A DNA stretch of 64,000 nt from Syntrophomonadaceae bacterium (GTDB lineage Bacteria > Bacillota > Dethiobacteria > DTU022 > UBA8154): NCBI GenBank assembly GCA_007135125.1, contig SLJK01000057.1, forward strand, positions 3,612-67,611. Reading direction: 5' to 3'. Both the position numbers and the translations under genes were made by a program. Below the pieces are notes generated by a model, which did not search any database, was not told the DNA's origin, and saw nothing but the letters and a program-made list of their open reading frames with translations. The first letter of the stretch is position 1, and every line of letters begins with the position of its first letter. Shown here piece after piece: positions 1 to 29,252 of this stretch.

Positions 1-2
1 CA

Positions 3-560
3 GTGGACTATGATTCGGTAGGCCAGACAGGTGCCATCATGGGTTCCGGTGGGATGATTGTAATGGATGAAACAACCTGTATGGTGGATATGGCACGCTT
101 TTTCCTTGATTTTGTGCAAAACGAATCCTGTGGTAAATGCGTTCACTGCCGCCTGGGCACCAAGAGAATGCTGGAGATTTTGACACGTATTACCGAGGGT
201 AAAGCTCAACCCGAAGAACTGGATCTGTTGGAAGAACTGGCCTATAACGTCAAGGAAGGATCACTGTGCGGTCTGGGGCAAACCGGCCCCAATCCTGTGC
301 TGACAACTCTTAAATATTTCCGCGATGAGTACGAAGCACATATTATGGATCGCAGTTGTCCGGCCAAGGTATGCCGAGAGCTTCTAACATTTACTATAGA
401 TCCGGAGTTATGTAATGGCTGCCGACGCTGTGTAAAGCGCTGTCCGACAGAATGCATTACGGGTGAAAAGAAAGAACCCCATGTTATTGACCAGGATAAG
501 TGCATCAAATGTGGAAATTGCTATGATGCTTGCAAGTTTGATGCCGTTATAATGGAGTAA
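3..560 (+). CDS. NADH dehydrogenase NuoF/HndC-like flavoprotein subunit, C-terminal part (5' partial at window edge)
   Basis: ORF open to the window start. ESCGKCxxCRxG motif typical of the NuoF N3 [4Fe-4S] site, followed by two CxxCxxCxxxCP ferredoxin motifs. Confidence 0.7.
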
Positions 561-608
561 ATAAAATGCAGGGAATCAATTTTTTTATAAAGGGGTTGAG
601 TAGAACAT

Positions 609-3600
609 ATGAGTAAAGCACGAATTAACATAAATAGACAGGAACTTACTGGATATACCGACCAGACTATTTTAGAAGTTGCAAAAGAAAATAGCATAGA
701 AATTCCCACCCTTTGTTTTAGCGGCGAACTGGAAATATATGCTTCCTGCGGACTCTGCCTGGTTGAGGTAGAGGGAGCGCCTCGTCTCCTCAGGGCGTGC
801 GCCACAAAAATCACTGACGGGATGGTTATACAGACTGACAATGAAAAGATTAAAAAAGCTCGCAAATTGGCACTGGAGCTAATTCTTTCAGATCACGCAG
901 GAGACTGCCGCGCCCCCTGTGTGCTGGCCTGCCCTGCTAACTGTGATGCCCAGGGATATGCCGCCCTGGTGGCCAACGGCCAGTATAGGGAAGCATTGAA
1001 ATTGGTGAAAGAGTTCATGCCTATACCTGCTTGTATAGGGAGGGTTTGTCCGGCGCCCTGTGAGGACAATTGCCGCCGAAACCTAGTTGAAGATCCTGTC
1101 TCCATACGCTATTTCAAGCGTCTAATAGCTGATTTGGATTTAGCCAGTGATGATCCATATCGTCCGGAAGTAGAACCTGACACTGGAAAAAAGATAGCGG
1201 TGGTTGGCTCCGGCCCAGCGGGATTGACTGCTGCATATTTTCTACGGCGTAATGGTAACTCTGTAACCATATTTGAGTCTTTACCGGAGATGGGTGGTAT
1301 GCTGCGCTACGGTATCCCCGAGTACCGCCTTCCCAAGACCGTGCTGGATGCAGAAATTCAGCAGATCTTGGATCTGGGGGTGGAGGCAAAAACCGGTGTC
1401 CAATTGGGTGAGGATTTTAGTATTGATTACCTTTTCAAGAATGGTTTTGATGCTGTTTATTTGGCAATAGGTGCACAGAACAGCCGTAGGATGGGTGTTC
1501 CAGGTGAAGATATGCCCGGAATTTTAGGAGGAACAGAATTCTTAAGGGCGGTAATGCTTAATGAAGAAGTCAGCCTGGGAGAAAAGGTGGCCGTAATCGG
1601 TGGTGGAAATACAGCGATGGACGCTGCCAGGACAGCCAAGCGGCTGGGTTCAAAAGTCACCGTGGTTTATAGGAGGGCCAGGGAGCAGATGCCTGCTCAG
1701 GCAATAGAGGTGGACGAAGCAGAAGAAGAAGGAGTAGAGTTATACCTGCTGGCAAACCCGGTTAAAATCGAAGGGGACGGCAAAGTAGAAAAGATGGTTT
1801 GCCAAAAGATGCAGTTAGGAGAACCTGATGCATCGGGACGGCGTAGGCCCGAACCTATCCCTGATGAATATTTTACCCTGGAAGTGGATACTATCATCGC
1901 TGCCATCGGGCAGGATGTTGGAATTGAGAATATTAAGGATGATGTCGATATTGATAAGTGGAACACCATCCATATTGAAGAAGATACCTTTATCACCAAT
2001 GTTCCCGGTGTCTTTGCCGGTGGGGACGCTGTGACCGGCCCCGGAATAGCCATTGAAGCTATTGCTGCAGGGAAACGCGTCACCGAAGTAATTGAAAATT
2101 ACCTGGGCGGAAAAATGGCACCCTATAAAACTTATTATGATATTAAACAAGAAGATCTTACCGAAGAGGATTTTGCGGATAGGGAAAAACAGGAAAAAGT
2201 CAAAATGCCAATCACTGCTCCGGAGGTTCGTGTTCAGAACTTCCGTGAGGCAGAGCAGGGAATAAGCCCAGAGGATGCTTTGAAAGATGGACAGCGGTGT
2301 CTGGAGTGCGGTTGTTTTGATTCATTCGAGTGCAAACTTCGTGATTATGCTACAACCTACCAGGCCAGACCGGAACGTATCGGCGGAGAAAAACATGATT
2401 ATGAAACAGAGGTTCATCCCTTTATTATAAGAGACCAGAATAAATGTATTCTCTGTGGATTATGTGTACGAACCTGCAGTGAAATTATTGGGGCGGAGGC
2501 TCTGGGACTGGTTAACCGTGGATTTGATGCATATGTCAGCCCATCTTTAGACCTTCCGCTGGAGGAAACTTCCTGTATCGCTTGCGGTCAGTGTGTAGCG
2601 GCTTGCCCTACAGGTGCACTGGTTGAAAATATGCCCTTCGATAAGCCAGCTCCCTGGCAGTTTAAAGAAACGGTTTCTATTTGCGGTTACTGCGGTGTAG
2701 GATGCAGCCTGCAAGTGGAAACCATCGGTAATAAAATAGCCAGGATGGTGCCTTATGAAGGACCTGTCAATGAAAGCACTCTTTGTAGTAAAGGACGTTT
2801 CGGTTTCGATTTCGTTAATTCCGAGAACAGGTTAAAAACACCTCTCATCAAAGAAAACGGCCAACTTAAGGAGACAACCTGGAAAGATGCGCTTCTTTAT
2901 ATTTCCAAGAGAGCAAAGTCATTAAAGGCTCGCTTTGGCGGAGAAAGCATGGCTGTATTTGCCGGACCTCGCTACAGCAACGAGGAGAGCTACCTTATTC
3001 AAAAGTTTGCCCGTGGCGTTTTGGGCAGTAACAACATAAATAGCTTTGGCGAAAAGGACAATCCCCTGGCAGAGGTTTTGGGATGGGGAGCATCAACAAA
3101 TTCCTACCAGGAAATAGGTGCAGCTGATTTTATACTGGGCGTAGGAGTAGACTTTACAGACTACCCCATTGTTGCTTTAAAGATGAAGCTGGCCTCAGAA
3201 CAGGGTGGAAAAATGTGGTTGGTGGATAAAATAAAACCAAAGCTGGGCAGTTATGCCGAAAAAGTCTTTTTAGTTAATGAAAAAGCTGATACAGATATTT
3301 TTGTAGCTATGCTGGCCTATTCTTTACAAGAAGGCATTGTAGATAAAGGGTTTACAGGCACCTTTACATCTAATTTCAATGAGTTAAAAGAAAAACTTGA
3401 AAAGAAAAATATTGAGGAGCTGATAACCAACAGCGGCCTTACTAGAGATGACATCTCTACACTGGTGAAAGGTTATGCGGAAGCGAAAAAACCGCTACTG
3501 ATACTTGGTAGTAACAACTTGAGTTCCGAGGCAGCCCAGGTACTGGCCGGGCTAGCGATGCTGCTTGGCAAAGTGGGCAAGCCACGACAGGGAATTCTTA

Positions 3601-4334
3601 ACCTTCGAGGACGCTGTAACAGCCAGGGCATGCTTGATGCCGGTGTTTCTCCTTCTTATTTGAGCGGTTATCAAAAGGTAACTGATGAGCTCAGCAGGAA
3701 TAAATTTGCCCACACGTGGAAAGTCCAGCTGCCTCAAAAAGAGGGATTAAATACAGCGGAAGTACTGGATAACGTGGAAAATGGTAATATTAAGGGCTTA
3801 TTTGTCTTTGGTGAGGATCCAGACGCACCAACATCCCAAAAACTGGCTCAATCGGAATTTTTGGTAGTGCAAGACCTTTTCCTAACAGATCTGGCCAAAC
3901 AGGCTGATGTAGTTCTGCCAGCTGCCAGTTTTGCTGAAACAGAAGGAAGCTTTACAAATAGTGAGCGCCGGGTCCAAAAATTGCGGCCGGCCCTGGCATC
4001 CCCGGCCGGCAAACAAAATTGGGAAATAATGTTAGATTTAATGGAGATGACCGGGTTCCACCAGCAATTTTCATCGCCGGAAGATGTTTGGAATGAAATA
4101 AGGAAGTTATCACCTATTTTTGAAGAAATCACTTACGCCGAACTGGATAATGCTCCTTATTGGGGTGGTTCACCTGTATGCATGATTGACGAATTGGTTA
4201 ATGCCAACGGAAAACTAAAATTCATGCTGCCCGAAAAGGGAGTACCCGTTTTTGAGGAAATTACTATTGTTGACAGTGCTCTTAAATGGTACAGGGAATT
4301 TATGACGGAAAAAGGGCTTCAAAAACTGGTTTGA
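609..4334 (+). CDS. Multidomain Fe-S flavoprotein: 2Fe-2S ferredoxin N-terminus, GltD-like NAD(P)H/FAD domain, 2x[4Fe-4S], and a molybdopterin-oxidoreductase (NuoG/FdhA-like) domain with no apparent MGD C-terminal domain
   Basis: 1241-aa ORF. VVGSGPAGLTAAYFL Rossmann motif of glutamate synthase small-chain type. CxxCxxCxxxCP motifs. SICGYCGVGCS MopB Fe4S4 motif. No Sec/Cys-His active-site signature was visible. Confidence 0.6.
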   Translation: MSKARININRQELTGYTDQTILEVAKENSIEIPTLCFSGELEIYASCGLCLVEVEGAPRLLRACATKITDGMVIQTDNEKIKKARKLALELILSDHAGDCRAPCVLACPANCDAQGYAALVANGQYREALKLVKEFMPIPACIGRVCPAPCEDNCRRNLVEDPVSIRYFKRLIADLDLASDDPYRPEVEPDTGKKIAVVGSGPAGLTAAYFLRRNGNSVTIFESLPEMGGMLRYGIPEYRLPKTVLDAEIQQILDLGVEAKTGVQLGEDFSIDYLFKNGFDAVYLAIGAQNSRRMGVPGEDMPGILGGTEFLRAVMLNEEVSLGEKVAVIGGGNTAMDAARTAKRLGSKVTVVYRRAREQMPAQAIEVDEAEEEGVELYLLANPVKIEGDGKVEKMVCQKMQLGEPDASGRRRPEPIPDEYFTLEVDTIIAAIGQDVGIENIKDDVDIDKWNTIHIEEDTFITNVPGVFAGGDAVTGPGIAIEAIAAGKRVTEVIENYLGGKMAPYKTYYDIKQEDLTEEDFADREKQEKVKMPITAPEVRVQNFREAEQGISPEDALKDGQRCLECGCFDSFECKLRDYATTYQARPERIGGEKHDYETEVHPFIIRDQNKCILCGLCVRTCSEIIGAEALGLVNRGFDAYVSPSLDLPLEETSCIACGQCVAACPTGALVENMPFDKPAPWQFKETVSICGYCGVGCSLQVETIGNKIARMVPYEGPVNESTLCSKGRFGFDFVNSENRLKTPLIKENGQLKETTWKDALLYISKRAKSLKARFGGESMAVFAGPRYSNEESYLIQKFARGVLGSNNINSFGEKDNPLAEVLGWGASTNSYQEIGAADFILGVGVDFTDYPIVALKMKLASEQGGKMWLVDKIKPKLGSYAEKVFLVNEKADTDIFVAMLAYSLQEGIVDKGFTGTFTSNFNELKEKLEKKNIEELITNSGLTRDDISTLVKGYAEAKKPLLILGSNNLSSEAAQVLAGLAMLLGKVGKPRQGILNLRGRCNSQGMLDAGVSPSYLSGYQKVTDELSRNKFAHTWKVQLPQKEGLNTAEVLDNVENGNIKGLFVFGEDPDAPTSQKLAQSEFLVVQDLFLTDLAKQADVVLPAASFAETEGSFTNSERRVQKLRPALASPAGKQNWEIMLDLMEMTGFHQQFSSPEDVWNEIRKLSPIFEEITYAELDNAPYWGGSPVCMIDELVNANGKLKFMLPEKGVPVFEEITIVDSALKWYREFMTEKGLQKLV

Positions 4335-4393: not shown

Positions 4394-5278
4394 ATGGCAG
4401 CAAAAATTATTTCTGGTAAAGACGTAGCGGCGGAAATCAGGGCAGAATTAAAAGATCAGGTGGCAGATTTAAAGACAAAAGGTATTGTACCCGGGTTAGG
4501 TGTGGTCCTTGTAGGTGAAGATCCAGCATCGGTATCTTATGTTACCAGCAAGGCTAAAGGTTGTGAAGAAATTGGAATGTACGAAGAAACGGTTCGCCTT
4601 GATGCGGATACTCCTGAGGATGAAGTCCTGAAAGTAATCGATAGGATGAATAAAGATCCCAAGATCAGCGGGATCCTGGTTCAGCTTCCTCTCCCCGATC
4701 ATATCAGCGTAGAAAACGTTATCAGCTACATCTCCCCGGAGAAAGACGTTGATGGTTTTCACCCCGTCAACCTCGGCAAACTGTTACGAGGCGAACCCTG
4801 CCCACTACCCTGTACTCCTCATGGTGTCAAGCAGCTTCTGGAACGTTCAGGAAACGATCCTTCCGGCAAGCATGTAGTCATCTGTGGCCGCAGCAATATT
4901 GTGGGCAAACCGCTTGCAGCAATTCTTATGCAAAAAGCTAAAGGAGCCAATGCTGTGGTAACAGTGGTTCATACCGGTGCCAAAGATATACCCTATTATA
5001 CCAAGCAGGCTGATATCCTGGTGGCAGCTATGGGCAAGCCCGGAGCCATCACTGCAGACATGGTCAGTGAAGGAACTGTAGTTGTCGATGTAGGGGTTAA
5101 CCGGATTCCTGATGATACCAAAAAGAAAGGCTTCCGTCTTGCGGGAGATGTAGACTATGAACCCGTTGCCGAAAAAGCCTCTTACATTACCCCTGTGCCC
5201 GGTGGCGTAGGACCTATGACTGTAACTATGCTGCTTTATAATACGGTAGAAGCGGCTGTAAGACTTAACCAGGGTTAG
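4394..5278 (+). CDS. folD: Bifunctional methylene-THF dehydrogenase/methenyl-THF cyclohydrolase FolD (canonical copy)
   Basis: SYVTSKAKGCEE (YxxxK), KDVDGFHP, GRSNIVGKP and PVPGGVGPMT motifs all present. Strong RBS AAAGGAGGAGG upstream. Confidence 0.9.
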   Translation: MAAKIISGKDVAAEIRAELKDQVADLKTKGIVPGLGVVLVGEDPASVSYVTSKAKGCEEIGMYEETVRLDADTPEDEVLKVIDRMNKDPKISGILVQLPLPDHISVENVISYISPEKDVDGFHPVNLGKLLRGEPCPLPCTPHGVKQLLERSGNDPSGKHVVICGRSNIVGKPLAAILMQKAKGANAVVTVVHTGAKDIPYYTKQADILVAAMGKPGAITADMVSEGTVVVDVGVNRIPDDTKKKGFRLAGDVDYEPVAEKASYITPVPGGVGPMTVTMLLYNTVEAAVRLNQG

Positions 5279-5292
5279 GAGGTAGAACAATT

Positions 5293-6150
5293 TTGACTGC
5301 CAGGCTTATTAAAGGAGATGAGGTTGCCGAAGAAGTCAGGGCTGAAATTTCGTCAGAGCTAAAAGATCTATACGATGGCACTGGCTATGTAGCTGGGCTG
5401 GCAGTTATTGTTGTGGGAGAAAACCCTACTTCTTTAGCATATATTTCTAATTGTGAGAAACAGGGCGAAAAGATGGGGATTAGTATTCAAGTTCACCGTC
5501 TGGACCAAAATATATCTCAAGAAGAATTGCTTGAAATAATCGAAGAGCTAAATGATGATTTCTTCATACACGGTATTATGATCCAGATGCCCTTACCAGA
5601 ACATCTGGATCATAAAGTGATTGTAGAAACAATCGATCCGGACAAAGATGTTGAAGGAGTCCACCCGATTACTATGGGTAAACTTTTTAGTGATGAAAAA
5701 AGTTTTATACCATGTACTGCCCATAGTATTATGAAAATGATTGAACATACCAGGCAGCCTGTTTATGGAAAATCAGCAGTAATAATCGGCCGCAGCAATA
5801 TAGTAGGTAAACCGCTTTCTCTTTTACTTCTAAGAAGAAATGCTTCCATTACTATATGTCATACAGGCACAGTAAATTTACCAGATATCTGTCGGGAAGC
5901 AGATATAGTTGTGGCAGCAGCGGGCACTCCTTACATGGTAGAAGGAAACTGGATTAAGCAAGATGCAATTGTACTTGATGTTGGGGTTACCCAGGTGGAA
6001 GATAAAATGGTGGGTGATGTTAATTTCCAAGAATGCAGAGAAGTAGCCAGTTGGATTTCTCCTGTTCCCGGTGGGGTAGGGCCACTAACTATTACAATGC
6101 TGATGTGGAACACATTGGAAGCTTTTCGCAAAAAAATGGATCGAATTTAA
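5293..6150 (+). CDS. FolD-family paralog 2 (divergent; Cys where the catalytic Lys is expected)
   Basis: Full-length FolD fold with GRSNIVGKP and PVPGGVGP. AYISNCEKQGE replaces YVASKRK. KDVEG replaces KDVDG. TTG start after AGGAGG. Confidence 0.75.
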   Translation: MTARLIKGDEVAEEVRAEISSELKDLYDGTGYVAGLAVIVVGENPTSLAYISNCEKQGEKMGISIQVHRLDQNISQEELLEIIEELNDDFFIHGIMIQMPLPEHLDHKVIVETIDPDKDVEGVHPITMGKLFSDEKSFIPCTAHSIMKMIEHTRQPVYGKSAVIIGRSNIVGKPLSLLLLRRNASITICHTGTVNLPDICREADIVVAAAGTPYMVEGNWIKQDAIVLDVGVTQVEDKMVGDVNFQECREVASWISPVPGGVGPLTITMLMWNTLEAFRKKMDRI

Positions 6151-6273
6151 CGTTTCCTTGCGTAAAACATAGTAGTTAAACACCAGCAAATGCCGGGGGA
6201 TTCCTTTTGGATGGCCTATTCCCCCGGCATGTTACCTTTGAAAACATCTGGTGTTTTGAAGGGAGGTACAGAG

Positions 6274-7116
6274 TTGGCAGCAAATATTATTAGAGGAGAA
6301 ACTATTGCCCAAGAATTACATGACAATCTTAAACATGAAGTAGCAAAGTTAAAGGAAGACCGAGGAATAACTCCTTGCATGGCCATTATCGTGCTTAAAA
6401 GTCCTGTTTCCCGAATTCATGTAGCGCGCTTAAAAGAGAGAACAAGCCAGCAATTAGGAATAAAATGTCAAATATTTACCCTGCCGGAGACCACCACTGA
6501 GGAAGAGATAAACTATCTTACCGAACGTCTCAATACAGCTAAAGAAGTTCATGGTATCAATATACACCCCCTTACTCCCCATCTCAATCATACCCTTATT
6601 TCGCAGATGGTGGATCCCCGTAAAGATGTTGAAGGCCTAAACTTTTTAAATATGGGTGCCTTTTTGAGTGGGGATTTTAGGATGGTCCCGTTTGTAGCAA
6701 GAGGCATTATGAAATTAATCGAACACACGGGTGAAGATCTGGAAGGGAAAAGGGCTGTTGTTGTGGGACGCAGCCAGTTAGTCGGAGAACCAGTTTCCTT
6801 TTTGTTACTGGAACAAAATGCTACTGTCAGTGTGTGTCATTCCATGACCCCGGACCTATCCACTTTTACGAAAAAGGCTGATGTACTGGTCGTTTCAGCC
6901 GGTCAACCACGTATCATAAAAGGCAATATGGTCAAAGAAGGAGCCATCGTTATTGATGTTGGCGTTAATCAAGTTGGAACCAGGCTGATTGGCGATGTGG
7001 ATTATGATACCGTTAAAGATAAAGCAAGCTGGATTACTCCTGTACCGGGAGGAGTTGGTCCTGTAACCATAGCTATGCTCCTGGATAACCTTGTTAAAGC
7101 TGCCAAGTATTCATGA
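6274..7116 (+). CDS. FolD-family paralog 3 (divergent; His in place of the motif Tyr, altered DVDG region)
   Basis: GRSQLVGEP and PVPGGVGPVT conserved. RIHVARLKER in place of YVASKRK. KDVEGLNF in place of KDVDGFHP. Probable TTG start at 6274 after GGGAGG; the ORF track extends it to 6190. 4-nt overlap with xseA. Confidence 0.7.
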   Translation: MAANIIRGETIAQELHDNLKHEVAKLKEDRGITPCMAIIVLKSPVSRIHVARLKERTSQQLGIKCQIFTLPETTTEEEINYLTERLNTAKEVHGINIHPLTPHLNHTLISQMVDPRKDVEGLNFLNMGAFLSGDFRMVPFVARGIMKLIEHTGEDLEGKRAVVVGRSQLVGEPVSFLLLEQNATVSVCHSMTPDLSTFTKKADVLVVSAGQPRIIKGNMVKEGAIVIDVGVNQVGTRLIGDVDYDTVKDKASWITPVPGGVGPVTIAMLLDNLVKAAKYS

Positions 7117-8375
7117 GAGAAGCAGTAGTATATACCGTTACCCAGCTTAATCAACATATAAAAAGATTGCTTCTAAAAGACAACCTACTTCAAGAAGTTC
7201 TGGTGGTAGGAGAGATATCTAATTACAAACATCATACTCCTTCCGGACATATCTATTTCACTCTGAAAGATGAAAATAGCATACTACGCTGCGTCTTTTT
7301 CCGCCATAAAAACCGTGAACTAACATTTATTCCTGCTGAGGGAATGAGAGTCCTGGCCGGGGGAAATATTTCTCTTTATGAGCGCGGCGGAATCTACCAG
7401 CTTTACATTGCCAGTTTGGAACCTGAAGGACTTGGAGCTCTATATCTGGCTTATGAACAGTTAAAGGAAAGACTCGCCCAAGAAGGGCTTTTTGAAATAC
7501 AACATAAACGATTATTACCTTTTATCCCTCAAAAAATAGGCCTCATTACTTCTTCTTCCGGGGCCGCGGTAAGGGATTTTTTATCTGCACTGGGTAGAAG
7601 ATTTCCTTGCGTAGAAGTGCTCTTTAAGCCGGCAGCTGTACAGGGGACAGAAGCTCCGGCTCAGATCATAGATGCACTGGAAAAATTAGATCAAGAAGAT
7701 TTGGATGTTATTGTTATCACAAGAGGGGGCGGTTCCTTAGAAGAACTGTGGGCCTTGAATGATGAAAAGCTGGCCAGGGCAATTTTCCATTCCGGAACAC
7801 CTGTGGTGAGCGCAGTGGGTCATGAAACGGATTATACCATTGCTGATTTTGTAGCAGATATGAGAGCTTCAACCCCAACTGCCGCCGCCGAACTTATAAC
7901 TCCCCAAAAAGACGAACTGTTGAAAAACATTGAAGTTTTTAAATCTCGATTACAGGATGCCTGGCGATATAAGCAAAGAGAGAGAGACAATTTACTGGAA
8001 AGATTTGAACGTGCCGTAGCATTCAGGTATCCTTATGATAAAATAAATACCGGTAACCAGAGATTGGATGAACTCTGGGGGCGGCTGACCAGAAATATAT
8101 CAGTCCAGCTGCAAAAAAAAGCAGATAACTTACAGGGCAGCGCGAATAGGCTTAATAATTTAAACCCTTTGCAGGTCTTAAATAGAGGCTTCGCCTTTGT
8201 CATGGACAAAGAAAAGAAGCCGGTAAACGGTATTTCTGCCCTGGATCCGGGGCAAAATATTGAAGTGCTATTTAGTGACGGAATTGCTTTCTGTACAGTG
8301 GACAAAATTAGACAGAAAAAACTTTCTTCGGGAGAAGGGGGAGCAAATTGCCTGAAAAAGAAACGGAGCAGATGA
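7113..8375 (+). CDS. xseA: Exodeoxyribonuclease VII large subunit
   Basis: Length and N-terminal OB-fold region (VYTVTQLNQHIKRLL) typical of XseA. Synteny folD-xseA-xseB-ispA. Confidence 0.85.
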   Translation: MREAVVYTVTQLNQHIKRLLLKDNLLQEVLVVGEISNYKHHTPSGHIYFTLKDENSILRCVFFRHKNRELTFIPAEGMRVLAGGNISLYERGGIYQLYIASLEPEGLGALYLAYEQLKERLAQEGLFEIQHKRLLPFIPQKIGLITSSSGAAVRDFLSALGRRFPCVEVLFKPAAVQGTEAPAQIIDALEKLDQEDLDVIVITRGGGSLEELWALNDEKLARAIFHSGTPVVSAVGHETDYTIADFVADMRASTPTAAAELITPQKDELLKNIEVFKSRLQDAWRYKQRERDNLLERFERAVAFRYPYDKINTGNQRLDELWGRLTRNISVQLQKKADNLQGSANRLNNLNPLQVLNRGFAFVMDKEKKPVNGISALDPGQNIEVLFSDGIAFCTVDKIRQKKLSSGEGGANCLKKKRSR

Positions 8376-9574: not shown

Positions 9575-10190
9575 GTGAGAACTGTTAAATTGTGCTATAA
9601 TTCTGTTGGATGTAGGTGGTGCAGTATCCTAGTTGGCAAACACTTCTGAAAACGGGCCTAAAAATCCGTTTAAGGGCACATCAATGAAGTCCCTGGTGCT
9701 GGCCGCTGAAGCCCAGTTGGGGGCTGGTGCTGGGGGTTAAGAAGGATGGGGCGATCTACAAAGGCATGTAGGCGTTGACCCTACCTTCGCGGAGACCTAA
9801 GATGGTGGTTCTTATCGAAAGGTAAGTTCTACTGCTTGGGGAAGAACCTGTGTGAGGCAGACGCTTTGCACAGTGTAGCCTGCCTTGAGTGGTGACGGGG
9901 GATAAGTGCTGTCTTTCAGGACTGGGAAACCGTCATTGAAAAGAGGCTAGGAAGTGTTCAATGCCAGCGAGGAAAACTCCTAGGCTGTTCCCATGGGGAG
10001 GCTCTATGGGGATTAAAGTGTGGTCTTAGTGGTAATCCAGCCCTGCTGTTGGCAACATGGCAGAGATGCTCTTAAAAGGTAACTGCCTTTCCGGTGACGG
10101 TGGGTGGGCATCTGGGAAATCCTGCTGGACCTTAAGCCGCAAAGTTTACTCATAGGGCTGCCACCTGCGTCTTTTTGTTATATCGTTGAG
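9575..10190 (+). ncRNA. ole: OLE (ornate large extremophilic) RNA, about 600 nt
   Basis: A ~630-nt gap with no ORF between ispA and a 4-TM membrane protein gene (oapA) that sits directly upstream of dxs. This is the characteristic ispA-ole-oapA-dxs-tlyA-nadK-recN arrangement described for OLE RNA loci. The sequence is GC-balanced and structured-looking. I could not run a covariance search. Confidence 0.7.
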
Positions 10191-10198
10191 GTGTTTAT

Positions 10199-10777
10199 TT
10201 GGCCAGAAGAACTGCAAAACAGAAAAAACGTGCATTGCGCTGGGCAATTATGGTTACTTTTTGGACTTTTCTGGTAGCCTTCGTTTTTGCACTGACCATG
10301 CGCTTCATTCTTCATGGTATACAGTCGATCATTATTTCTTTCCTGCTTCTTTTATTTATTATTTTTATCGGCGTACTCTTCGATACTATAGGCACGGCAG
10401 TAACAGCTGCCAACGAAACGCCGTTCCATTCCAAAGCCTCCAAAAAAGTTTATGGTGCGCAAAAAGGGATTTACCTGGTCCGGTATGCTGACCAGGTAGC
10501 TAACTTTTGCAATGATATGATTGGGGATATTAGCGGCGTGGTTAGCGGCGTGGTTGGTGCAGTAATTATTTTCAACCTGGTCCTGGCCCGGCCGGAACTG
10601 AGTGAAATATATTTAAGTATTATTTTAACCGCCGTAGTGGCTGCACTAACCGTGGGGGGAAAAGCGCTAGGAAAATATTTAGCAATCAGCAGGCCCACAG
10701 AAGTAGTGTTATTGTTTGCCCAGGTGCTTACCACTATAGAAAAAGTATCTTTAAGAAAGAAACAAAACAGGTATTAA
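10199..10777 (+). CDS. oapA: OLE-associated protein A (small polytopic membrane protein)
   Basis: 192 aa with about 4 predicted TM segments. TTG start after GAGGTG. Position immediately 3' of the OLE candidate and 5' of dxs. Confidence 0.65.
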   Translation: MARRTAKQKKRALRWAIMVTFWTFLVAFVFALTMRFILHGIQSIIISFLLLLFIIFIGVLFDTIGTAVTAANETPFHSKASKKVYGAQKGIYLVRYADQVANFCNDMIGDISGVVSGVVGAVIIFNLVLARPELSEIYLSIILTAVVAALTVGGKALGKYLAISRPTEVVLLFAQVLTTIEKVSLRKKQNRY

Positions 10778-10786
10778 ATTAATTAG

Positions 10787-12697
10787 GTGACGAAAAGCGG
10801 TGATCAATTGAGCAAACTGTTATCTGACATAGAACATCCCCAGTCTTTAAAAAAACTCAATAGCCAAGAGCTCAATCAACTTGCCCAAGAAATAAGGGAA
10901 TTAATCATCAACGTTGTTGCAAAAAAAGGAGGGCATTTAGCTTCCAGCCTGGGAGTTGTAGAACTTACTGTTGCCCTGCACAGCATTTTCCAAGCTCCTA
11001 AAGATAAAATTGTGTGGGATGTTGGACACCAGTGCTATGCCCATAAAATTTTGACCGGCAGAAAAGATTTATTCCAGGAAATGCGCAGCCTGGGTGGAAT
11101 AAGCGGTTTTCCTCGCAGAGAAGAAAGTCCTTATGATCCTTTTGGTACTGGTCACAGCAGCACTTCTCTCTCGGCAGCGCTGGGGATTGCCTTGGCCAGA
11201 GATCTGCGCCAGGAAGATTATAAAGTTATAGCTGTCATCGGTGACGGAGCCTTAACCGGTGGAATGGCTCTGGAAGCGCTTAACTATGCCGGAGAAATCG
11301 ATACTGATCTAATTGCTATTTTAAACGATAATAAACTTTCCATTGACCAAAATGTGGGAGGGTTGCCATCTCACCTGGCCAGGTTAAGGTCAGACCCCAA
11401 ATATTATCGCTTAAAAGAGGAATTGGAATTTTTTTTGGAACGTATTCCAGCTATTGGCAAAACTATGTTACGTTCCGCAGAACGCTTAAAAGACAGCGTA
11501 AAATATCTCTTGGTACCGGGTGTTCTTTTTGAAGAACTGGGATTTACGTACTTAGGACCGGTTGACGGACATAATATTTATAATCTTCAAGATTTGATGC
11601 GGCAGGCGCAAAAAATAAAAGGGCCTGTATTACTGCATGCAGTTACTCAAAAGGGTAAAGGTTATTCCCTCGCGGAAAAAGAGCCCTGTTACTTTCATGG
11701 AATCGGTCCATTCCATAAAGATACCGGGAAATTGCTGGTATCAGATTCCTCCAGCATCTCATATAGTGAAATTTTTGGTTCCTCCTTATTAAAAATGGCT
11801 GAAGATGATGAATCTATCGTTGCCATAACCGCTGCCATGGCCAGCGGGACAGGTTTAGAACCTTTTTCCCAGAAATACTCCCAACGTTTTTATGATGTAG
11901 GAATTGCCGAGCAAAATGCTGTAACTATGGGTGCTGGTATGGCTGCAGGTGGACGAAAACCTGTCATAGCAATCTACAGTACTTTTTTACAAAGAGCTTA
12001 TGATCAGATCCTGCATGATGTCTGCCTGCAAAAATTGCCTGTTGTTTTTGCCATTGACAGGGCAGGTGTTGTAGGAGAAGATGGTGAAACGCATAACGGC
12101 CTTTTTGACTATGCTTACCTCCGACATATGCCTGAAATTGTAGTAATGGCACCCACAAATGGCCAAGAAATTACCGCCATGCTTAAAACTGCTCTTACAC
12201 TGCAGGGACCTTCTGCAATAAGATATCCCAAGGGAAAAACATCGCCCCTTTCAAGTACAAAGATAGAAACATTGCTTCCTGGCAAAGGGGTTCTAGTAAA
12301 AGAAGGCAATGATCTTCTTATCCTGGCAGCAGGATCAATGCTTCCACGGGCCTTGGAAGCCTGGGAAGCGTTAAAACGGGAAAATATTTATTGTAGTGTT
12401 ATTAATCCGCGTTTTATTAAACCACTGGATAAAGAATTAATCTGTAAATGGGCTCAAACCTGCAAAAAAGTACTGACAGTAGAAGAGCATGTGTTAGCCG
12501 GAGGTTTTGGCAGTGCTGTCTTGGAGCTTTTTGAAGAAGAAAACATGACACAAATCAAAGTTAAACGTATGGGCATAAAGAATCCCTTTACAGGACAGGG
12601 CAGTCGAGAACAGATTTTAAAGCTAAATGGTCTTTCTACTGAGGGGATTGTGCAGGAGGCGATAAAGCTCTGTCAGGCAACGGCAAACATAAATTAA
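10787..12697 (+). CDS. dxs: 1-deoxy-D-xylulose-5-phosphate synthase
   Basis: 636 aa with TPP-binding GDG...N region (IGDGALTGGMALEALN) and transketolase-like C-terminus. The start may be the downstream in-frame TTG (MSKLLSD...). Confidence 0.9.
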   Translation: MTKSGDQLSKLLSDIEHPQSLKKLNSQELNQLAQEIRELIINVVAKKGGHLASSLGVVELTVALHSIFQAPKDKIVWDVGHQCYAHKILTGRKDLFQEMRSLGGISGFPRREESPYDPFGTGHSSTSLSAALGIALARDLRQEDYKVIAVIGDGALTGGMALEALNYAGEIDTDLIAILNDNKLSIDQNVGGLPSHLARLRSDPKYYRLKEELEFFLERIPAIGKTMLRSAERLKDSVKYLLVPGVLFEELGFTYLGPVDGHNIYNLQDLMRQAQKIKGPVLLHAVTQKGKGYSLAEKEPCYFHGIGPFHKDTGKLLVSDSSSISYSEIFGSSLLKMAEDDESIVAITAAMASGTGLEPFSQKYSQRFYDVGIAEQNAVTMGAGMAAGGRKPVIAIYSTFLQRAYDQILHDVCLQKLPVVFAIDRAGVVGEDGETHNGLFDYAYLRHMPEIVVMAPTNGQEITAMLKTALTLQGPSAIRYPKGKTSPLSSTKIETLLPGKGVLVKEGNDLLILAAGSMLPRALEAWEALKRENIYCSVINPRFIKPLDKELICKWAQTCKKVLTVEEHVLAGGFGSAVLELFEEENMTQIKVKRMGIKNPFTGQGSREQILKLNGLSTEGIVQEAIKLCQATANIN

Positions 12698-12789
12698 CTG
12701 AACGCGACGGAAAAACTAAAATTCGCCTTGACATATTCCTGGTAGAAAGTGAACTTGCACCAAATCGCAGCAAGGCTCGCGGGGAAATA

Positions 12790-13530
12790 ATGGCTGGCAA
12801 TGTATACGTGGATAATATCAAGCAGGACAAGCCCGGTTTTCTTGTTTCTTCTAAATCAAAAGTTGAAATTAGGGGTAAGTGTAATCCTTACGTTAGCAGG
12901 GGCGGGTTAAAACTGGAGAAAGCCCTGCAAAGCTTTTCTGTTTCCCTTACAGGAAAAACGGTACTGGATATCGGCGCATCTACAGGAGGCTTTACAGATT
13001 GTGCCCTGCTGCACGGGGCAGCTAAGGTTATCGCTCTGGATGTTGGTTATGGACAGTTGGATTGGAAATTAAGAAATCATCCGGATGTAGTAATCATGGA
13101 ACGTTTTAATGTGAGATATTTGAATGAGAAGCATCTACCTTTTAAACCGCAAGTAGCAACAGTTGATGTATCATTTATATCTTTGAAATTGGTACTGCCA
13201 GTCCTTTTTTCTTTAGAGTTCGAACAAATTATTGCCCTGGTAAAGCCCCAGTTTGAAGCTTCCCCTGACCGGGTAGGAAAACGGGGAGTTGTCAGGGATT
13301 TAAACATACATAAAGAAATTCTGGAAAAGGTAGTTGATATTTCCGTTGAACACAATTATATCGCACAGAACCTTACCTACTCTCCGATAAAGGGACCACA
13401 AGGCAATATTGAATACTTTATTTATCTAGAAAAGCCTAAAAACAAGGCAAGTGACACGGTACATCAGGAACCAAAGTCTTGTTTATCTGTTGAAAATGTA
13501 GTTCAGGAAGCTCACCGCAAATTATATTAA
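12790..13530 (+). CDS. tlyA: TlyA-family 16S/23S rRNA 2'-O-methyltransferase (hemolysin A-like); true start lies upstream of the listed ATG
   Basis: FtsJ-like methyltransferase core (DIGASTGGFTD). The S4 domain (IRLDIFLVESELAPNRSKARGEIMAGNVYVD) is encoded in frame upstream of ATG 12790, where no ATG/GTG/TTG exists. Confidence 0.8.
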   Translation: MAGNVYVDNIKQDKPGFLVSSKSKVEIRGKCNPYVSRGGLKLEKALQSFSVSLTGKTVLDIGASTGGFTDCALLHGAAKVIALDVGYGQLDWKLRNHPDVVIMERFNVRYLNEKHLPFKPQVATVDVSFISLKLVLPVLFSLEFEQIIALVKPQFEASPDRVGKRGVVRDLNIHKEILEKVVDISVEHNYIAQNLTYSPIKGPQGNIEYFIYLEKPKNKASDTVHQEPKSCLSVENVVQEAHRKLY

Positions 13531-13589
13531 AATTCACAATTAAAGGTGCATAAAACCATTTACTGGTGCAATGAAGGAGTGGTTCCTCT

Positions 13590-14438
13590 TTGTTTAAAGG
13601 TATAGGAATTGTCCCAAACTGGCAAAAAAATAATGTGCCGGAAGTTTTGGAGGAGATAAAATCTTTTTTCCGAAAACAAGATGTTCCTGTTTTTGTTGAG
13701 CCTGCCGCAGAACCTCTATTAAACCTGCCCACCCCTGTTATGGAATTCTCCGCATGGTCTAAAACTACAGACCTGGTTATTGTTGTCGGCGGTGATGGAA
13801 CTTTTTTGAGAGTAGCCAGGGAGTTAGCTCATACTTCACTGCCAATCTTGGGAATTAATTTAGGACATAAGGGGTTTTTGGCAGAGATTGAAGTTGATAA
13901 ATTGCTTCCCTCTTTACAAAAGCTGCTCGACGGCAATTTTTGCACAGGGGAACGGATGATGTTAAATACAGAAATTATCAGAGACAACCAGTCCATTGCT
14001 TCTTTTCTCTCCCTGAACGATGTGATCATTTCCAGGGGACCTTTTTCCAGGATTATTAAGTTGGATACCTACATAAATGAAGATTTTCTGGAAAGTTACC
14101 CTGGCGATGGAATGATTATCGCGAGCCCCACGGGCTCAACTGGTTATTCTCTTTCTGCAGGTGGCCCCATAGTTCACCCAGGCCTAAATGTTTTAGTAGT
14201 TACTCCCATATGCCCCCATCTACTCTACCAACGTTCTGTAATAGTTGACAAAGAAGATATTATTTCTATTGACGTAGCGACTTCTTCTGCAAAAATTTTT
14301 TTGACACTGGATGGGCAGGAGGGATTTTCCCTTAGCTATCGTGATTACATAAAAGTCCGTAAGGCAGACTATGTAACAAAAGTAATAACTTTTCCTGAAA
14401 ACAATTTTTATAAATTGCTGCATGATAAACTGATCTAA
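13590..14438 (+). CDS. nadK: NAD kinase
   Basis: GGDGT motif (VVGGDGTFL) and NE/D short motif. TTG start after GAAGGAG. Confidence 0.85.
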   Translation: MFKGIGIVPNWQKNNVPEVLEEIKSFFRKQDVPVFVEPAAEPLLNLPTPVMEFSAWSKTTDLVIVVGGDGTFLRVARELAHTSLPILGINLGHKGFLAEIEVDKLLPSLQKLLDGNFCTGERMMLNTEIIRDNQSIASFLSLNDVIISRGPFSRIIKLDTYINEDFLESYPGDGMIIASPTGSTGYSLSAGGPIVHPGLNVLVVTPICPHLLYQRSVIVDKEDIISIDVATSSAKIFLTLDGQEGFSLSYRDYIKVRKADYVTKVITFPENNFYKLLHDKLI

Positions 14439-16225: not shown

Positions 16226-16330
16226 AGACCCTACTACCTTTGTTTTATTTTCTATATAAAAGGATTTCATGGCACCTTTGTGGAATAACTTATTCATATT
16301 TCTGGATTTTTATTTAAGGGGTATACATTT

Positions 16331-17218: not shown

Positions 17219-17236
17219 ATAAGGAGTGCAGCGTCC

Positions 17237-27152: not shown

Positions 27153-29252
27153 TTGGAGGTTGTCCTTGCCGAAAGTGCAGGTTTTTGTAAAGGGGTAGAG
27201 GATGCTATAAAAATAGCTTTGGAAAACGCATCCCTGGGGAAAACAGTTAGCACTCTTGGCCCTCTTGTTCACAACGAAGAGGTAATTGCGTATTTAGGCC
27301 GAAACAAGGTCAAATTCTACGATAATTTGGCTGATATACCGGAAGGAACGATCATTATCCGTACTCATGGAGTGGGTCCTGCTGTGCTTTCTGAATTGTA
27401 TAAAAGAGAAGACCTGGAAGTAATTGATGCTACCTGCCCACATGTAAAAAAAGTGCAGGAACTTGTCAGGAATTACGCGGATAGTGGTTATCAAGTCGTT
27501 ATTTATGGTGATATTAAGCATCCAGAGGTTAAAGCACTTATGGAATGGGCAGGTCCGCAAACGTTAGTAATATCACCAGGTGAAGTCGAACATGGTCATC
27601 TGGAACTCTCAGAAAAAGCTGTATTAATATCACAAACCACACAACAGGAGAATAGTTATGCTTCTTTGGCAAAGATATTAGAGGCAGAATATCCTCATCT
27701 AGTAGTACATAGCACCATTTGCAAAGCAGCAGCAAAAAGACAACTTGCTGCCTCAAAATTGGCAAATACGGTAGACTTGATGTTGGTAGTAGGTGACAAG
27801 AAAAGCTCAAACACCCACAAACTCACGCAAGTCTGTCGTGAAATAACACAAACCTATCAGGTTGCCGGAGCCCATGATATTGCTAGAGAGTGGCTGGTAG
27901 GTGCAAAGACTGTAGGGGTCACTGCCGGGGCTTCAACCCCTCATTGGAAGATAAAGGAGGTTATGGTTATGATGGAAAATGGAAGCTTTGAAGAAAAGGC
28001 AGCAGAGGAATTTTCTCCATCCCAGGAGGAACATAATCAGGAAGAAGTAAGCCAGGAAGAACTTGGCCAGGAAGAAATTAAAGAATATATGCCTGGTGAT
28101 GTAGTTACGGGAAAAGTTGTTCTGGTGGATGAAGAACAGGTTCTCGTTGACATTGGAGCCAAGTCTGAGGCTGTTCTCCCTAGAAAGGAAGTCTATTTAG
28201 AAGGTGATAACACACTGGATGAAATTTTTTCAAGGGGAGATAGTGTGGACGTGTTAGTTTTAAAAGCTAACGACCAGGAAGATAGAACAGTAGTATCACA
28301 GAAACGCTTGGAAAGGGAGCGTCGCTGGAAAGAACTGGAGGATGCCCTGGAAGACACTTCTAATTTAAGCGGAAACGTAAAAGAAGTTGTTCCTGCCGGC
28401 ATTATTATCGATCTTAAGAGTGGTATTGAAGGGTTCATGCCTGGCTCCCTGGTTGATCTTCGCTACATTCCTGATTTTCAAGAATTTTTAGGACAAGAAT
28501 TTTCCTTTAAAGTAGTGGAATTAAACAGAGAGCGCGATAAAGTAATATTGTCCAGAAAGCAAGCTCTGGAAGAAGAACAGGAACAACATAAACAGGAAAC
28601 CATTAACAACCTCACCGAAGGACAGATCATCTCCGGGGTTATAAAAAGGTTAACCGATTTTGGAGCCTTTGTAGATGTAGGTGGTATAGATGGTCTCGTG
28701 CATATCTCGGAGGTTTCCTGGCAGAGAGTAGGACACCCCCGTGAAATCTTAAAAGTTGGGGAAGAAGTTCAAGTTAAGGTTTTAGAAATAATACCGGAGA
28801 GGGAAAGAATAAGCCTCAGCATCAGGCAAGCACAGCCTGACCCCTGGAGCCAAATAGAAGAAAGATTGCAAGTAGGAGCAGTTGTAGAAGGCAAAGTGAC
28901 CCGAATTGTCAATTTTGGTGCTTTCGTGGAAATCATCCCGGGAGTTGAAGGGTTGGTTCATATTTCGCAGATGGCTGACTTTCATGTAAAACATCCTTCC
29001 GAAGTTCTCCAGGAAGGGGAAGAAGTTGAGGTTAAGATACTGGATATCAACAAAGAGGGTAAAAGAATAAGCCTCAGCATAAAAGAGGCACGTCCGGCAC
29101 CAAAAGATTATTCAGCATCCGCACAACAAAAAGATCAGGAAACTCAAAACGTAACCCTGGGCGATATCTTTGGCGACCTATTTCCTAACAACGTGAAAAA
29201 CGAACTACAAGATGCGGAAGATGAAGAAGATGATAATGGAAAAAACGAATAA
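27153..29252 (+). CDS. ispH: 4-hydroxy-3-methylbut-2-enyl diphosphate reductase fused to 30S ribosomal protein S1-like domains
   Basis: N-terminal ~280 aa LytB/IspH with three conserved Cys regions (GFCKGV, ATCPHV, TICKAA). C-terminal four S1 repeats and acidic tail. Follows cmk-plsC as in Clostridia. Confidence 0.85.
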   Translation: MEVVLAESAGFCKGVEDAIKIALENASLGKTVSTLGPLVHNEEVIAYLGRNKVKFYDNLADIPEGTIIIRTHGVGPAVLSELYKREDLEVIDATCPHVKKVQELVRNYADSGYQVVIYGDIKHPEVKALMEWAGPQTLVISPGEVEHGHLELSEKAVLISQTTQQENSYASLAKILEAEYPHLVVHSTICKAAAKRQLAASKLANTVDLMLVVGDKKSSNTHKLTQVCREITQTYQVAGAHDIAREWLVGAKTVGVTAGASTPHWKIKEVMVMMENGSFEEKAAEEFSPSQEEHNQEEVSQEELGQEEIKEYMPGDVVTGKVVLVDEEQVLVDIGAKSEAVLPRKEVYLEGDNTLDEIFSRGDSVDVLVLKANDQEDRTVVSQKRLERERRWKELEDALEDTSNLSGNVKEVVPAGIIIDLKSGIEGFMPGSLVDLRYIPDFQEFLGQEFSFKVVELNRERDKVILSRKQALEEEQEQHKQETINNLTEGQIISGVIKRLTDFGAFVDVGGIDGLVHISEVSWQRVGHPREILKVGEEVQVKVLEIIPERERISLSIRQAQPDPWSQIEERLQVGAVVEGKVTRIVNFGAFVEIIPGVEGLVHISQMADFHVKHPSEVLQEGEEVEVKILDINKEGKRISLSIKEARPAPKDYSASAQQKDQETQNVTLGDIFGDLFPNNVKNELQDAEDEEDDNGKNE

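Follow-up and report, generated by a model that had tools for sequence, protein, structure and literature searches.

StnABC, also known as NfnABC, is a bifurcating transhydrogenase of the Bfu family that keeps the NADH, NADPH and ferredoxin pools of the cell in balance. It has been characterised both biochemically and by electron cryo-microscopy, with structures from Sporomusa ovata (8OH5), Caldicellulosiruptor saccharolyticus (9BOV) and Thermococcus sibiricus (9N5U). The large subunit of the S. ovata enzyme, StnC, has 1172 aa and joins a GltD-like NADPH/FAD domain to a NuoG-like one with a [2Fe-2S] N-terminus and a 'catalytically inactive' FdhF-like C-terminus (PMC10482914). [quoted passage not shown] Its clusters C1 and C2 lie off the electron path, and the FdhF-like domain with these clusters is needed for tetramer formation (PMC10482914). 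In C. saccharolyticus NfnABC the pterin site is incomplete, pterin density is absent and the iron-sulfur (FeS) side branch is likely a non-functional evolutionary remnant (PMC11829005). Here we examine the start of a 64,000-nt stretch of DNA from a Syntrophomonadaceae bacterium (GenBank assembly GCA_007135125.1, contig SLJK01000057.1, forward-strand positions 3,612 to 67,611; hereafter the window). Judging from their sequences, its first two open reading frames (ORFs) are very probably the 3' end of stnB and the stnC gene of an stnABC operon (nfnCBA in Bfu nomenclature), encoding a bifurcating/confurcating transhydrogenase.

An earlier description made from the letters alone, which we call the sequence-only reading, had reported a NuoF-like gene followed by a 1241-aa fusion of 2Fe-2S, GltD-like and NuoG/formate dehydrogenase-like parts. 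The ORF listing confirmed both sets of coordinates (3..560 and 609..4334, + strand), and Pfam bore out the order of domains. The features of the transhydrogenase genes are as follows.

1..560, + strand: putative 3' end of stnB/nfnB, reading frame from base 3; final 185 codons of the bifurcating subunit (NuoF/HydB-like, binding FMN and NADH)
609..4334, + strand: putative stnC (nfnA in Bfu nomenclature), 1241 aa, large subunit, binds NADP(H)
621..842, + strand: N-terminal [2Fe-2S] ferredoxin domain of StnC, residues 5-78 (Pfam Fer2_4, 2.5e-17)
894..2072, + strand: GltD/NfnB-like insertion of StnC (Pfam Fer4_20 and Pyr_redox_2; NF009454, 683 bits)
2298..2621, + strand: CxxCxC...C motif of StnC (C564-C575), then the NuoG-type His/Cys cluster and 2x[4Fe-4S] (603-671; Pfam Fer4_Nqo3, 7.4e-09, and Fer4_7)
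2664..4334, + strand: formate dehydrogenase-like MopB remnant of StnC (Pfam PF04879 and PF00384 matched, PF01568 not)

The first of these ORFs had been taken for a NuoF-like subunit, which is correct as to its identity, but the gene is incomplete. Its 185 aa are the C-terminal third of a 589-aa NuoF/HydB-like protein that the edge of the window truncates; the GTG found at position 3 is an artefact of ORF calling, not the true start of stnB. The ATG of stnC at 609 is preceded by a Shine-Dalgarno-like AAGGGG. StnC is 100 per cent identical to a public protein (P0001) carried on contigs of metagenome-assembled genomes (MAGs; GCA_007126665.1 and three others) that show the complete locus. On the parent contig (L001), nusB is followed by a 250-bp gap, a NuoE-like gene (170 aa), the NuoF-like gene (589 aa), the 1241-aa gene and three folD genes; after these come xseA, xseB, ispA, an unannotated ORF, dxs, a gene for an FtsJ-type methyltransferase and nadK. 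The window therefore opens inside the second gene of a three-gene operon, with the NuoE-like gene just outside it. The same order of NuoE-like, NuoF-like and fusion genes recurs in nearly all homologous loci. The E-values are effectively zero, so chance is not an issue.

All three subunits are closer to their Stn/Nfn counterparts than to those of hydrogenases, formate dehydrogenases or complex I. The best PDB matches to full-length StnC were 9bov_A (1085 bits) and 8oh5_C (1011 bits); 9n5u_A (NfnA) scored 694 bits and covered only residues 4-766. The stnB fragment in the window matched residues 400-584 of 8oh5_B with 293 bits and 9bov_B with 280 bits (both 584-aa chains). For the full 589-aa protein, the scores were 910 bits to 8oh5_B, 890 to 9bov_B and 835 to 9n5u_B, against 759 or less for the B subunits of hydrogenases (HydB, NiFe-hydrogenase B). 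The NuoE-like protein ranked 9bov_C, 9n5u_C and 8oh5_A first, with 189 bits to the C. saccharolyticus subunit and 177 to that of S. ovata.

The Pfam domains of StnC run in the order Fer2_4 (residues 5-78), Fer4_20 (100-177), Pyr_redox_2 (195-488), Fer4_Nqo3/Fer4_7 (604-671), Molybdop_Fe4S4 (686-738) and Molybdopterin (741-1146), and a GltD-like NCBIfam model covers residues 1-626. The GltD-like FAD/NADP(H) domain thus sits as an insertion after the N-terminal 2Fe-2S domain and ahead of the NuoG-type clusters, and both flanking Cys motifs are present. We aligned 20 StnC homologues of 45-100 per cent identity (alignment A1). Invariant in this alignment are the Cys residues of the 2Fe-2S site (C36, C47, C50, C64), those of an HxxxCxxxCxxxCP motif (H96-C100-C104-C108-P109 in the translation), the CxxCxC...C residues C564, C567, C569 and C575, the ligands of the NuoG-type clusters (H603, C613, C616, C619, C623, C656, C659, C662, C666) and the Cys residues of the MopB FeS cluster (C692, C695, C699, C726). 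An NADP(H) fingerprint, GGGNTA, lies at residues 331-336. In the stnB fragment, NADH_4Fe-4S (1.3e-34) is followed by two Pfam 4Fe-4S ferredoxin motifs, and CxxCxxCxxxCP occurs twice (C137-C147, C167-C177). The fragment consists of the N3-type [4Fe-4S] region and a C-terminal 2x[4Fe-4S] ferredoxin-docking domain; this extra domain is absent from non-bifurcating NuoF homologues, and here it aligns with the end of 8oh5_B.

Residues that mutagenesis has marked as important in the S. ovata enzyme are largely kept. K170 of S. ovata StnC is the Lys ligand of the FAD-proximal [4Fe-4S] cluster, essential by mutagenesis, and R239 lies at the FAD site (PMC10482914). In an alignment to 8oh5_C, K170 and R240 of our StnC take these two positions, and both are invariant in A1. 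One position speaks against the assignment: Cys114 of S. ovata is replaced by Ala here, with a Cys at 112 instead ('PANCDAQGY' vs 'PAQTDCQGY'). The Ala114/Cys112 arrangement is the majority state in A1. In S. ovata, C114 sits near cluster C7 and is modulating and not strictly conserved, and a C114A variant retains 50 per cent of activity (PMC10482914). Taken as a whole, the locus is best explained as a Stn/NfnABC transhydrogenase operon, a reading to which we would give a probability of roughly 0.85 from these comparisons.

The architecture is accordingly not new; it is the hallmark large subunit of the known Stn/NfnABC (Bfu) family. The sequence-only reading had seen in it an SfrAB/NfnAB-type enzyme fused into one polypeptide, and this description has to be replaced. 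Its functional proposal, an NAD(P)H:ferredoxin oxidoreductase that might bifurcate, is supported as essentially right by homology to solved and assayed enzymes. By analogy with those enzymes, the reaction would be 2 NADPH + NAD+ + Fd(ox) <-> 2 NADP+ + NADH + Fd(red), where Fd is ferredoxin. Hydride would be exchanged between NADP(H) and FAD in the GltD-like insertion of StnC, and single electrons would then reach the FMN of the NuoF-like StnB by way of the Lys170-ligated [4Fe-4S] cluster and the NuoG-type FeS chain of StnC. In the characterised family the site of bifurcation is this FMN, together with the NuoE-like subunit, and not the GltD-like part. Here, too, bifurcation would take place at the StnB FMN with the [2Fe-2S] cluster of the NuoE-like StnA, one branch leading to NAD+ and the ferredoxin branch running through the two C-terminal [4Fe-4S] clusters of StnB. 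The MopB domain would be a pterin-free evolutionary remnant that probably serves assembly or oligomerisation, with its FeS side branch off the productive path.

Directly downstream of stnC are three folD genes, each identified by Pfam.

4394..5278, + strand: folD1 (type A), Pfam THF_DHG_CYH and THF_DHG_CYH_C, 59 nt 3' of stnC
5293..6150, + strand: folD2 (type B), catalytic Lys (at the position of E. coli K54) replaced by Cys
6274..7116, + strand: folD3 (type C), stop overlapping the xseA start

The sequence-only reading had proposed that this adjacency marks a dedicated electron link to one-carbon (C1) metabolism, and had named the presence of the linkage in related genomes as a check. We sampled contigs of relatives across the identity range, with eight members at 60 per cent StnC identity or more. 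Six of these eight have stnABC linked to folD. The order nusB-stnABC-folD(x1-3)-xseA-xseB-ispA-dxs is found in the window and in the relatives P0012 (69 per cent), P0014 (69 per cent), P0027 (60 per cent, with a single folD) and P0030 (60 per cent). In P0004 (72 per cent), from a Dethiobacter MAG (locus L085), the order is nusB, a tsaD-like gene, stnABC, folD, a gene for FolD joined to an A_deaminase-like domain, an unannotated gene and the urocanase gene. Below this range, the locus of P0036 (54 per cent, L089) has a convergent dihydrofolate reductase gene downstream of stnABC (11711-12304), a folate neighbour, and no folate genes were seen near stnABC in P0040 (48 per cent) or Thermosediminibacter oceani (47 per cent). 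The folD linkage is specific to a clade of about 60 per cent identity or more.

The fused gene of L085 merits separate mention. This second FolD after stnC (12714-14171, 485 aa) carries an adenosine/AMP-deaminase-like domain, and the urocanase gene follows at 14535-15146. The pair hints at some connection with the release of C1 units by histidine or purine breakdown.

The most informative comparison comes from a genome that lacks stnABC at this position. Locus L136 (GCA_900198705.1, FZPS01000036.1, from a 3.3-Mb genome) was found through a relative of FolD3 with 64 per cent identity. Its order is spoIIIA-asp23-nusB-[X]-folD-folD-xseA-xseB-ispA-...-dxs-tlyA-nadK-recN, in which X is a two-gene pair and not stnABC. 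The first gene of X scores 335 bits against P. furiosus NfnI-S and 260 bits against T. maritima NfnA, and the second 610 bits against T. maritima NfnB and 535 bits against NfnI-L. On these matches X, at 5616-7888, is classical nfnAB (NfnSL-type), a structurally unrelated bifurcating enzyme of the same reaction, placed between nusB and folD and followed by FolD-A and FolD-C; the same arrangement occurs in L137. The FolD directly after nfnB is 87 per cent identical to FolD1 of the window, whereas XseA, IspA, Dxs, NadK and NusB are only 50-70 per cent identical between the two genomes.

The occupation of one slot, beside the same FolD pair, by two transhydrogenases that are not orthologous argues that the linkage is functional, and this is the best evidence we have for it. 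The swap also fits what is published on acetogens, in which Stn and Nfn are almost mutually exclusive, and on S. ovata, where stnABC lies directly 3' of the Wood-Ljungdahl cluster and the methylene-tetrahydrofolate (methylene-THF) dehydrogenase is NADP-specific (PMC7483475). It is small but new evidence, of the natural-experiment kind, that Stn and Nfn can stand in for each other functionally, with their NADPH tied to the folate C1 branch. The idea of an electron link to FolD therefore gains support from the swap, while adjacency by itself would have carried little. From the genomic comparison we lean, by a narrow preference, toward StnABC being functionally tied through NADPH to the downstream FolD paralogs.

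Several observations weigh against that tie. The folD gene normally lies beside nusB and xseA in Firmicutes, where nusB-folD-xseA-xseB-ispA-dxs is a standard housekeeping block, so adjacency alone is weak evidence and could be passive. Two members of the clade have no adjacent folD: in P0022 (66 per cent, L087) stnABC comes after efp and is followed by a two-component system and an rnfCDGEA operon, and in P0025 (64 per cent, L091) it lies 5' of spoIIIA-asp23. More distantly, none of 80 genome loci has folD in the flanks; these are the background set, among the matches listed with 44 per cent identity or less in a profile scan of genome contigs with the StnC alignment. The first 33 kb of the window showed no Wood-Ljungdahl genes. 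Scans for sigma-70 promoters and for terminators, in the operon and in the nusB-stnA gap, gave counts no higher than in shuffled sequence and are uninformative on co-transcription.

These points bear on the explanation that survives best among the alternatives, namely that stnABC landed in, or was inherited with, the efp/spoIIIA/asp23/nusB/folD/xseA block and has no special tie to FolD. We regard it as a serious contender, at somewhat less than even odds. The position of stnABC within the block varies: it lies after efp in L087, before spoIIIA in L091, before asp23-nusB in L011 and after an asp23-like gene in T. oceani. In L092, with its single folD, the locus looks like a simple insertion of stnABC between nusB and folD, and the absence of linkage from the 80 distant loci listed agrees with this explanation as well. 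Against it stand StnABC and NfnAB in an identical slot directly 5' of the same FolD-A/FolD-C pair, the published precedent in S. ovata (PMC7483475) and the tight spacing of the genes. The intergenic gaps are 48 nt between stnB and stnC, 59 nt between stnC and folD1 and 14 nt between folD1 and folD2. The ribosome-binding site (RBS) of folD1 is strong (AGGAGG), and there is no hairpin between stnC and folD1.

The rnfCDGEA operon that follows stnABC and the two-component system in L087 (region 14939-19543) encodes a ferredoxin:NAD+ oxidoreductase and is a neighbour of the redox-pool kind.

Further signals lie at the two ends of the gene group. Upstream, the 250-bp nusB-stnA gap gave no match when compared with Rfam at a permissive threshold, and hence no riboswitch upstream of the operon. 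Downstream, folD3 likely starts at TTG 6274 (RBS GAAGGGAGG), which gives a 280-aa protein like its homologues, rather than at ATG 6190; the gap after folD2 is then 123 nt. This gap contains, within 6190..6263, a perfect 11-bp GC-rich hairpin at 6190-6230 (ATGCCGGGGGA/TCCCCCGGCAT, with a 19-nt loop) and after it a second hairpin that pairs with the Shine-Dalgarno region of folD3 (minimum free energy -38.9 kcal/mol, z = -2.1). The hairpins are not conserved in L086, L088 or L136. They may be a terminator or a translational attenuator, and they give only a hint that stnABC-folD1-folD2 and folD3-xseAB-ispA form separate transcription units.

FolD1, FolD2 and FolD3 are old paralogs with mutual identities of 38-41 per cent. 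FolD1 has all the canonical motifs of a bifunctional FolD and is 86-88 per cent identical to the FolD beside stnC in L085 and L090. We take it as the probable NADP(H)-linked partner of the transhydrogenase. FolD2 reads 'YISNCEK', with Cys at the position of E. coli K54, the residue for cyclohydrolase activity. Its orthologues in L085 and L086 are 65-67 per cent identical; at the catalytic Lys position, L086 (11775-12632) has Ile, and Lys is kept in L085 and L088. In L090 (10647-11138), a 163-aa chimera joins a type-B N-terminus to a type-C C-terminus. This chimera, together with the variation between one and three copies, indicates that the FolD tandem array is dynamic and recombining.

FolD3 belongs to a sharply bounded subfamily, type C, of 54 protein clusters (P0121-P0174) at 59 per cent identity or more, after which identity drops to 50 per cent or less. 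All 54 carry 'xHVARLKE(R/K)', 'GINIH-P(L/F)x' and 'KDVEGLH', where canonical FolD has 'xYVxxKxK', 'GILVQLPLP' and 'KDVDGFH'. His, His and Glu thus take the place of the canonical Tyr, Gln and Asp, and the change from Gln to His comes with a 1-aa deletion. The type-C stop overlaps the xseA start in every locus examined, including L086 (12699-13541), L088 (12759-13604) and L136 (9001-9843). Public records annotate these proteins as ordinary bifunctional FolD. The uniform conservation of the changed active site argues for a modified function of FolD-C rather than decay. A profile scan of metagenome contigs with FolD3 returned only ordinary QLPLP FolDs, none of type C and none near stn, and has no bearing on the co-occurrence of FolD-C and stn. 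FolD-C is an uncharacterised subfamily that could be tested cheaply in vitro.

If the transhydrogenase and FolD are indeed coupled, the enzyme would probably be co-expressed with the downstream FolD paralogs in this Dethiobacter-related lineage. Under reductive C1 flow it could supply NADPH for the reduction of methenyl-THF; under oxidative flow, NADPH derived from FolD could be re-oxidised into NADH and reduced ferredoxin. A bolder version is tentative and, to our mind, rather doubtful: that a transhydrogenase (StnABC or NfnAB) and two or three FolD paralogs make up a conserved operon-level module, with a dedicated NADPH loop driving or draining the methenyl-/methylene-THF step, and that FolD-B and FolD-C have split or new activities instead of being redundant. 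What the locus adds to present knowledge is that within one clade a transhydrogenase, whether Stn or Nfn, goes together with a variable set of FolD paralogs, apparently in a functional way, and in addition the divergent FolD-C subfamily.

A second alternative concerns the reaction itself, with the Stn-type complex using NADPH to reduce sulfur, polysulfide or Fe(III) and not serving transhydrogenation for C1 metabolism. The first proposals gave the homologous Nso, Sud and Sfr enzymes such a role, which would suit a sulfur- or iron-respiring way of life like that of Dethiobacter. The closest relatives of StnC that bear a name come from Dethiobacter MAGs, homologues are annotated as 'NADPH-Fe(3+) oxidoreductase subunit beta', the published identity between StnC and NsoC, a subunit of the NADPH-dependent sulfur oxidoreductase, is 40.6 per cent (Kremp 2020, PMC7483475), and the off-pathway FeS branch has no assigned role (PMC10482914, PMC11829005). 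Yet every biochemically re-examined member of this architecture has turned out to be a ferredoxin- and NAD-dependent transhydrogenase (PMC10482914, PMC7483475, PMC12018979, PMC11829005). Moreover, classical NfnAB fills the same genomic slot elsewhere, and the transhydrogenase reaction is what NfnAB and Stn have in common. We consider this alternative improbable.

The MopB part of StnC had been described as apparently cofactor-less, with neither a selenocysteine (Sec) or Cys-His active-site pattern nor a C-terminal domain binding molybdopterin guanine dinucleotide (MGD). Pfam, TIGR01591, alignments to formate dehydrogenases and a comparison with the homologue P0088 all agree on the missing pattern and domain. 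Pfam finds no match to Molydop_binding (PF01568, domain IV) in StnC, and the formate dehydrogenase alpha model TIGR01591 is matched over positions 2-546 of 672 only. Aligned with E. coli FdhH, T. kivui HDCR-FdhF, B. subtilis YjgC and a tungsten-containing formate dehydrogenase, StnC shows a gap or residues other than Cys and His at the 'CARVxH/CARLCH' loop, and all four alignments end near FdhH residue 522 of 715. The catalytic Sec/Cys-His pair (U140-H141 in E. coli FdhH) is not kept. Domains I-III of MopB extend from residue 741 to about 1200, and the protein finishes in a short helix-like tail.

P0088 (1356 aa) keeps both PF01568 and the CARLCH loop and served as the reference for deletions. 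Relative to it, all 19 Stn-type sequences have lost 5 aa at the catalytic loop and 4 aa at the 'MGITQ' loop, their 'GSNTSAAHP' motif is 2 aa shorter and without its His, and DPR has given way to DKI or variants. Domain IV (about 100 residues) is gone from all 19 as well. StnC terminates where 'YPLLLTTGR' would begin, with 92 residues after a shared anchor column as against 194 in P0088. The lost motifs (the MGITQ loop, the GSNTSAAHP His and DPR) belong to domain II, and the domain-III motifs are kept; we take the motifs of both domains to be pterin and guanosine contacts. The MopB domain of StnC is probably pterin-free, because the solved homologues carry no pterin. The loss of the catalytic loop and of domain IV is thus seen directly, and lack of the cofactor is probable by way of the homologues. 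The companion suggestion of an electron-transfer scaffold rather than a formate dehydrogenase is supported in that the enzyme is most unlikely to be a formate dehydrogenase, with one correction: in the solved homologues the MopB part is no part of the productive wire but a dead end off the pathway that makes tetramer contacts.

The remnant diverges faster than the N-terminal part of StnC, with identities to the window protein of 81/62, 72/49, 65/43 and 57/38 per cent (N-terminal part/remnant). Many distant homologues have no remnant at all; they match residues 1-671 only and still have NuoE/F-like genes upstream. The remnant of the window protein scores about 300 bits against real FdhF and about 215 bits against StnC remnants, which raised the idea of an unusually formate dehydrogenase-like evolutionary intermediate. 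We rejected this idea, as all remnants are 32-40 per cent identical to P0088 and that of the window is at 39 per cent. The pattern of scores fits fast independent divergence of relaxed remnants.

P0088 itself, a public 'formate dehydrogenase subunit alpha [Clostridiales bacterium]', has the same GltD-like insertion with an intact formate dehydrogenase module. It is a candidate for an NADPH-linked, possibly bifurcating formate dehydrogenase, and plausibly represents the ancestral form of StnC.

The remaining alternative, a conventional or NADPH-linked (possibly bifurcating) molybdenum/tungsten (Mo/W) formate dehydrogenase with a GltD-like insertion in its alpha subunit, draws on the score of about 300 bits of the isolated MopB part against FdhF/YjgC enzymes, above that against StnC MopB domains, on the conserved domain-III motifs (QDxFLT, ADVVLPA, EGxFTNxERR) with the Arg equivalent to FdhH R333, and on homologues publicly annotated as 'formate dehydrogenase major subunit', but it is largely refuted and exceedingly improbable given the two loop deletions, the change from DPR to DKI, the missing domain IV, the lack of formate oxidation by S. 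ovata Stn (PMC7483475) and the absence of pterin density in the C. saccharolyticus enzyme (PMC11829005).

Elsewhere in its first 33 kb, the window carries core housekeeping genes. The Wood-Ljungdahl pathway is used by Dethiobacter in culture, and papers on Dethiobacter and Ca. Contubernalis make no mention of Nfn or Stn. Between ispA and dxs lies a full-length OLE (ornate large extremophilic) RNA (9600..10180, + strand; Rfam RF01071, 466 bits), directly followed by a 192-aa ORF without a Pfam match (10199..10777, + strand), which presumably encodes the OLE-associated protein OapA. The interval between ispA and dxs with an adjoining ORF is a known genomic setting of OLE RNA. Farther downstream in the housekeeping region, 27153..29252 encodes a 699-aa fusion of IspH (LytB) and four S1 RNA-binding domains (ispH-rpsA).

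With the enzyme family established, correct annotation is the main practical value of the transhydrogenase assignment. Proteins of this kind that carry the public labels 'formate dehydrogenase major subunit', 'molybdopterin-dependent oxidoreductase' or 'NADPH-Fe(3+) oxidoreductase' should be read as StnC/NfnA, which matters for reconstructing redox metabolism in alkaliphilic and subsurface Bacillota. The enzyme is ordinary for its family; its conserved position directly 5' of several FolD genes is new and modestly interesting.

Among known systems, Mo/W formate dehydrogenases (FdhF, FdsA) have MopB domains I-III and FeS clusters in common with StnC, but they also have the Sec/Cys-His loop along with pterin-contact loops and a domain IV, three elements that StnC lacks. 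SfrAB of Geobacter sulfurreducens, which we compared by its description in the literature, resembles StnC in combining a pterin-less formate dehydrogenase/NuoG-like SfrA with a GltD-like SfrB; there the two are separate polypeptides without NuoE/F partners (PMC7483475), whereas here they are fused and have NuoE/F-like partners. Published identities of the corresponding StnC parts are 39.9 per cent to SfrB and 27.8 per cent to SfrA (PMC7483475). Classical NfnAB/NfnSL (T. maritima 4YLF, P. furiosus 5JCA) has the same overall reaction, and its NfnB/L subunit is homologous to the GltD-like insertion, which is 43.5 per cent identical to NfnB of L136. It differs in having two subunits, with bifurcation at the FAD of NfnB/L, and no NuoE, NuoF or NuoG-like modules. 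Conversely, the L001 locus has no NfnA/S-like (FNR-like) gene, and the NfnB-like part exists there solely as the insertion in StnC.

The solved members of the Bfu family are the closest. T. sibiricus NfnABC (9N5U; PMC12018979) shares the Bfu type-1 transhydrogenase core and the Lys-ligated cluster, but it is a single heterotrimer with a reduced formate dehydrogenase-like part, and its large subunit is about 280 residues shorter (955-963 aa). C. saccharolyticus NfnABC (9BOV/9BP5; PMC11829005) is the highest-scoring solved homologue and has the same architecture, with a large subunit of 1178 aa; it comes from a thermophilic sugar fermenter, for which folD linkage is not described. S. ovata StnABC (8OH5/8OH9; PMC7483475, PMC10482914) has in common with this locus the three-gene operon, the domain order of StnC, its Cys and NADP motifs and the C-terminal 2x[4Fe-4S] of StnB. 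StnC here is 69 residues longer (1241 vs 1172 aa), with the surplus in the MopB remnant, which HMMER aligns with that of S. ovata only over the first 330 residues or so. The surroundings are C1-related in both cases but differ: stn of S. ovata adjoins Wood-Ljungdahl genes, whereas here, in place of a full Wood-Ljungdahl cluster, it adjoins FolD paralogs within a housekeeping block.

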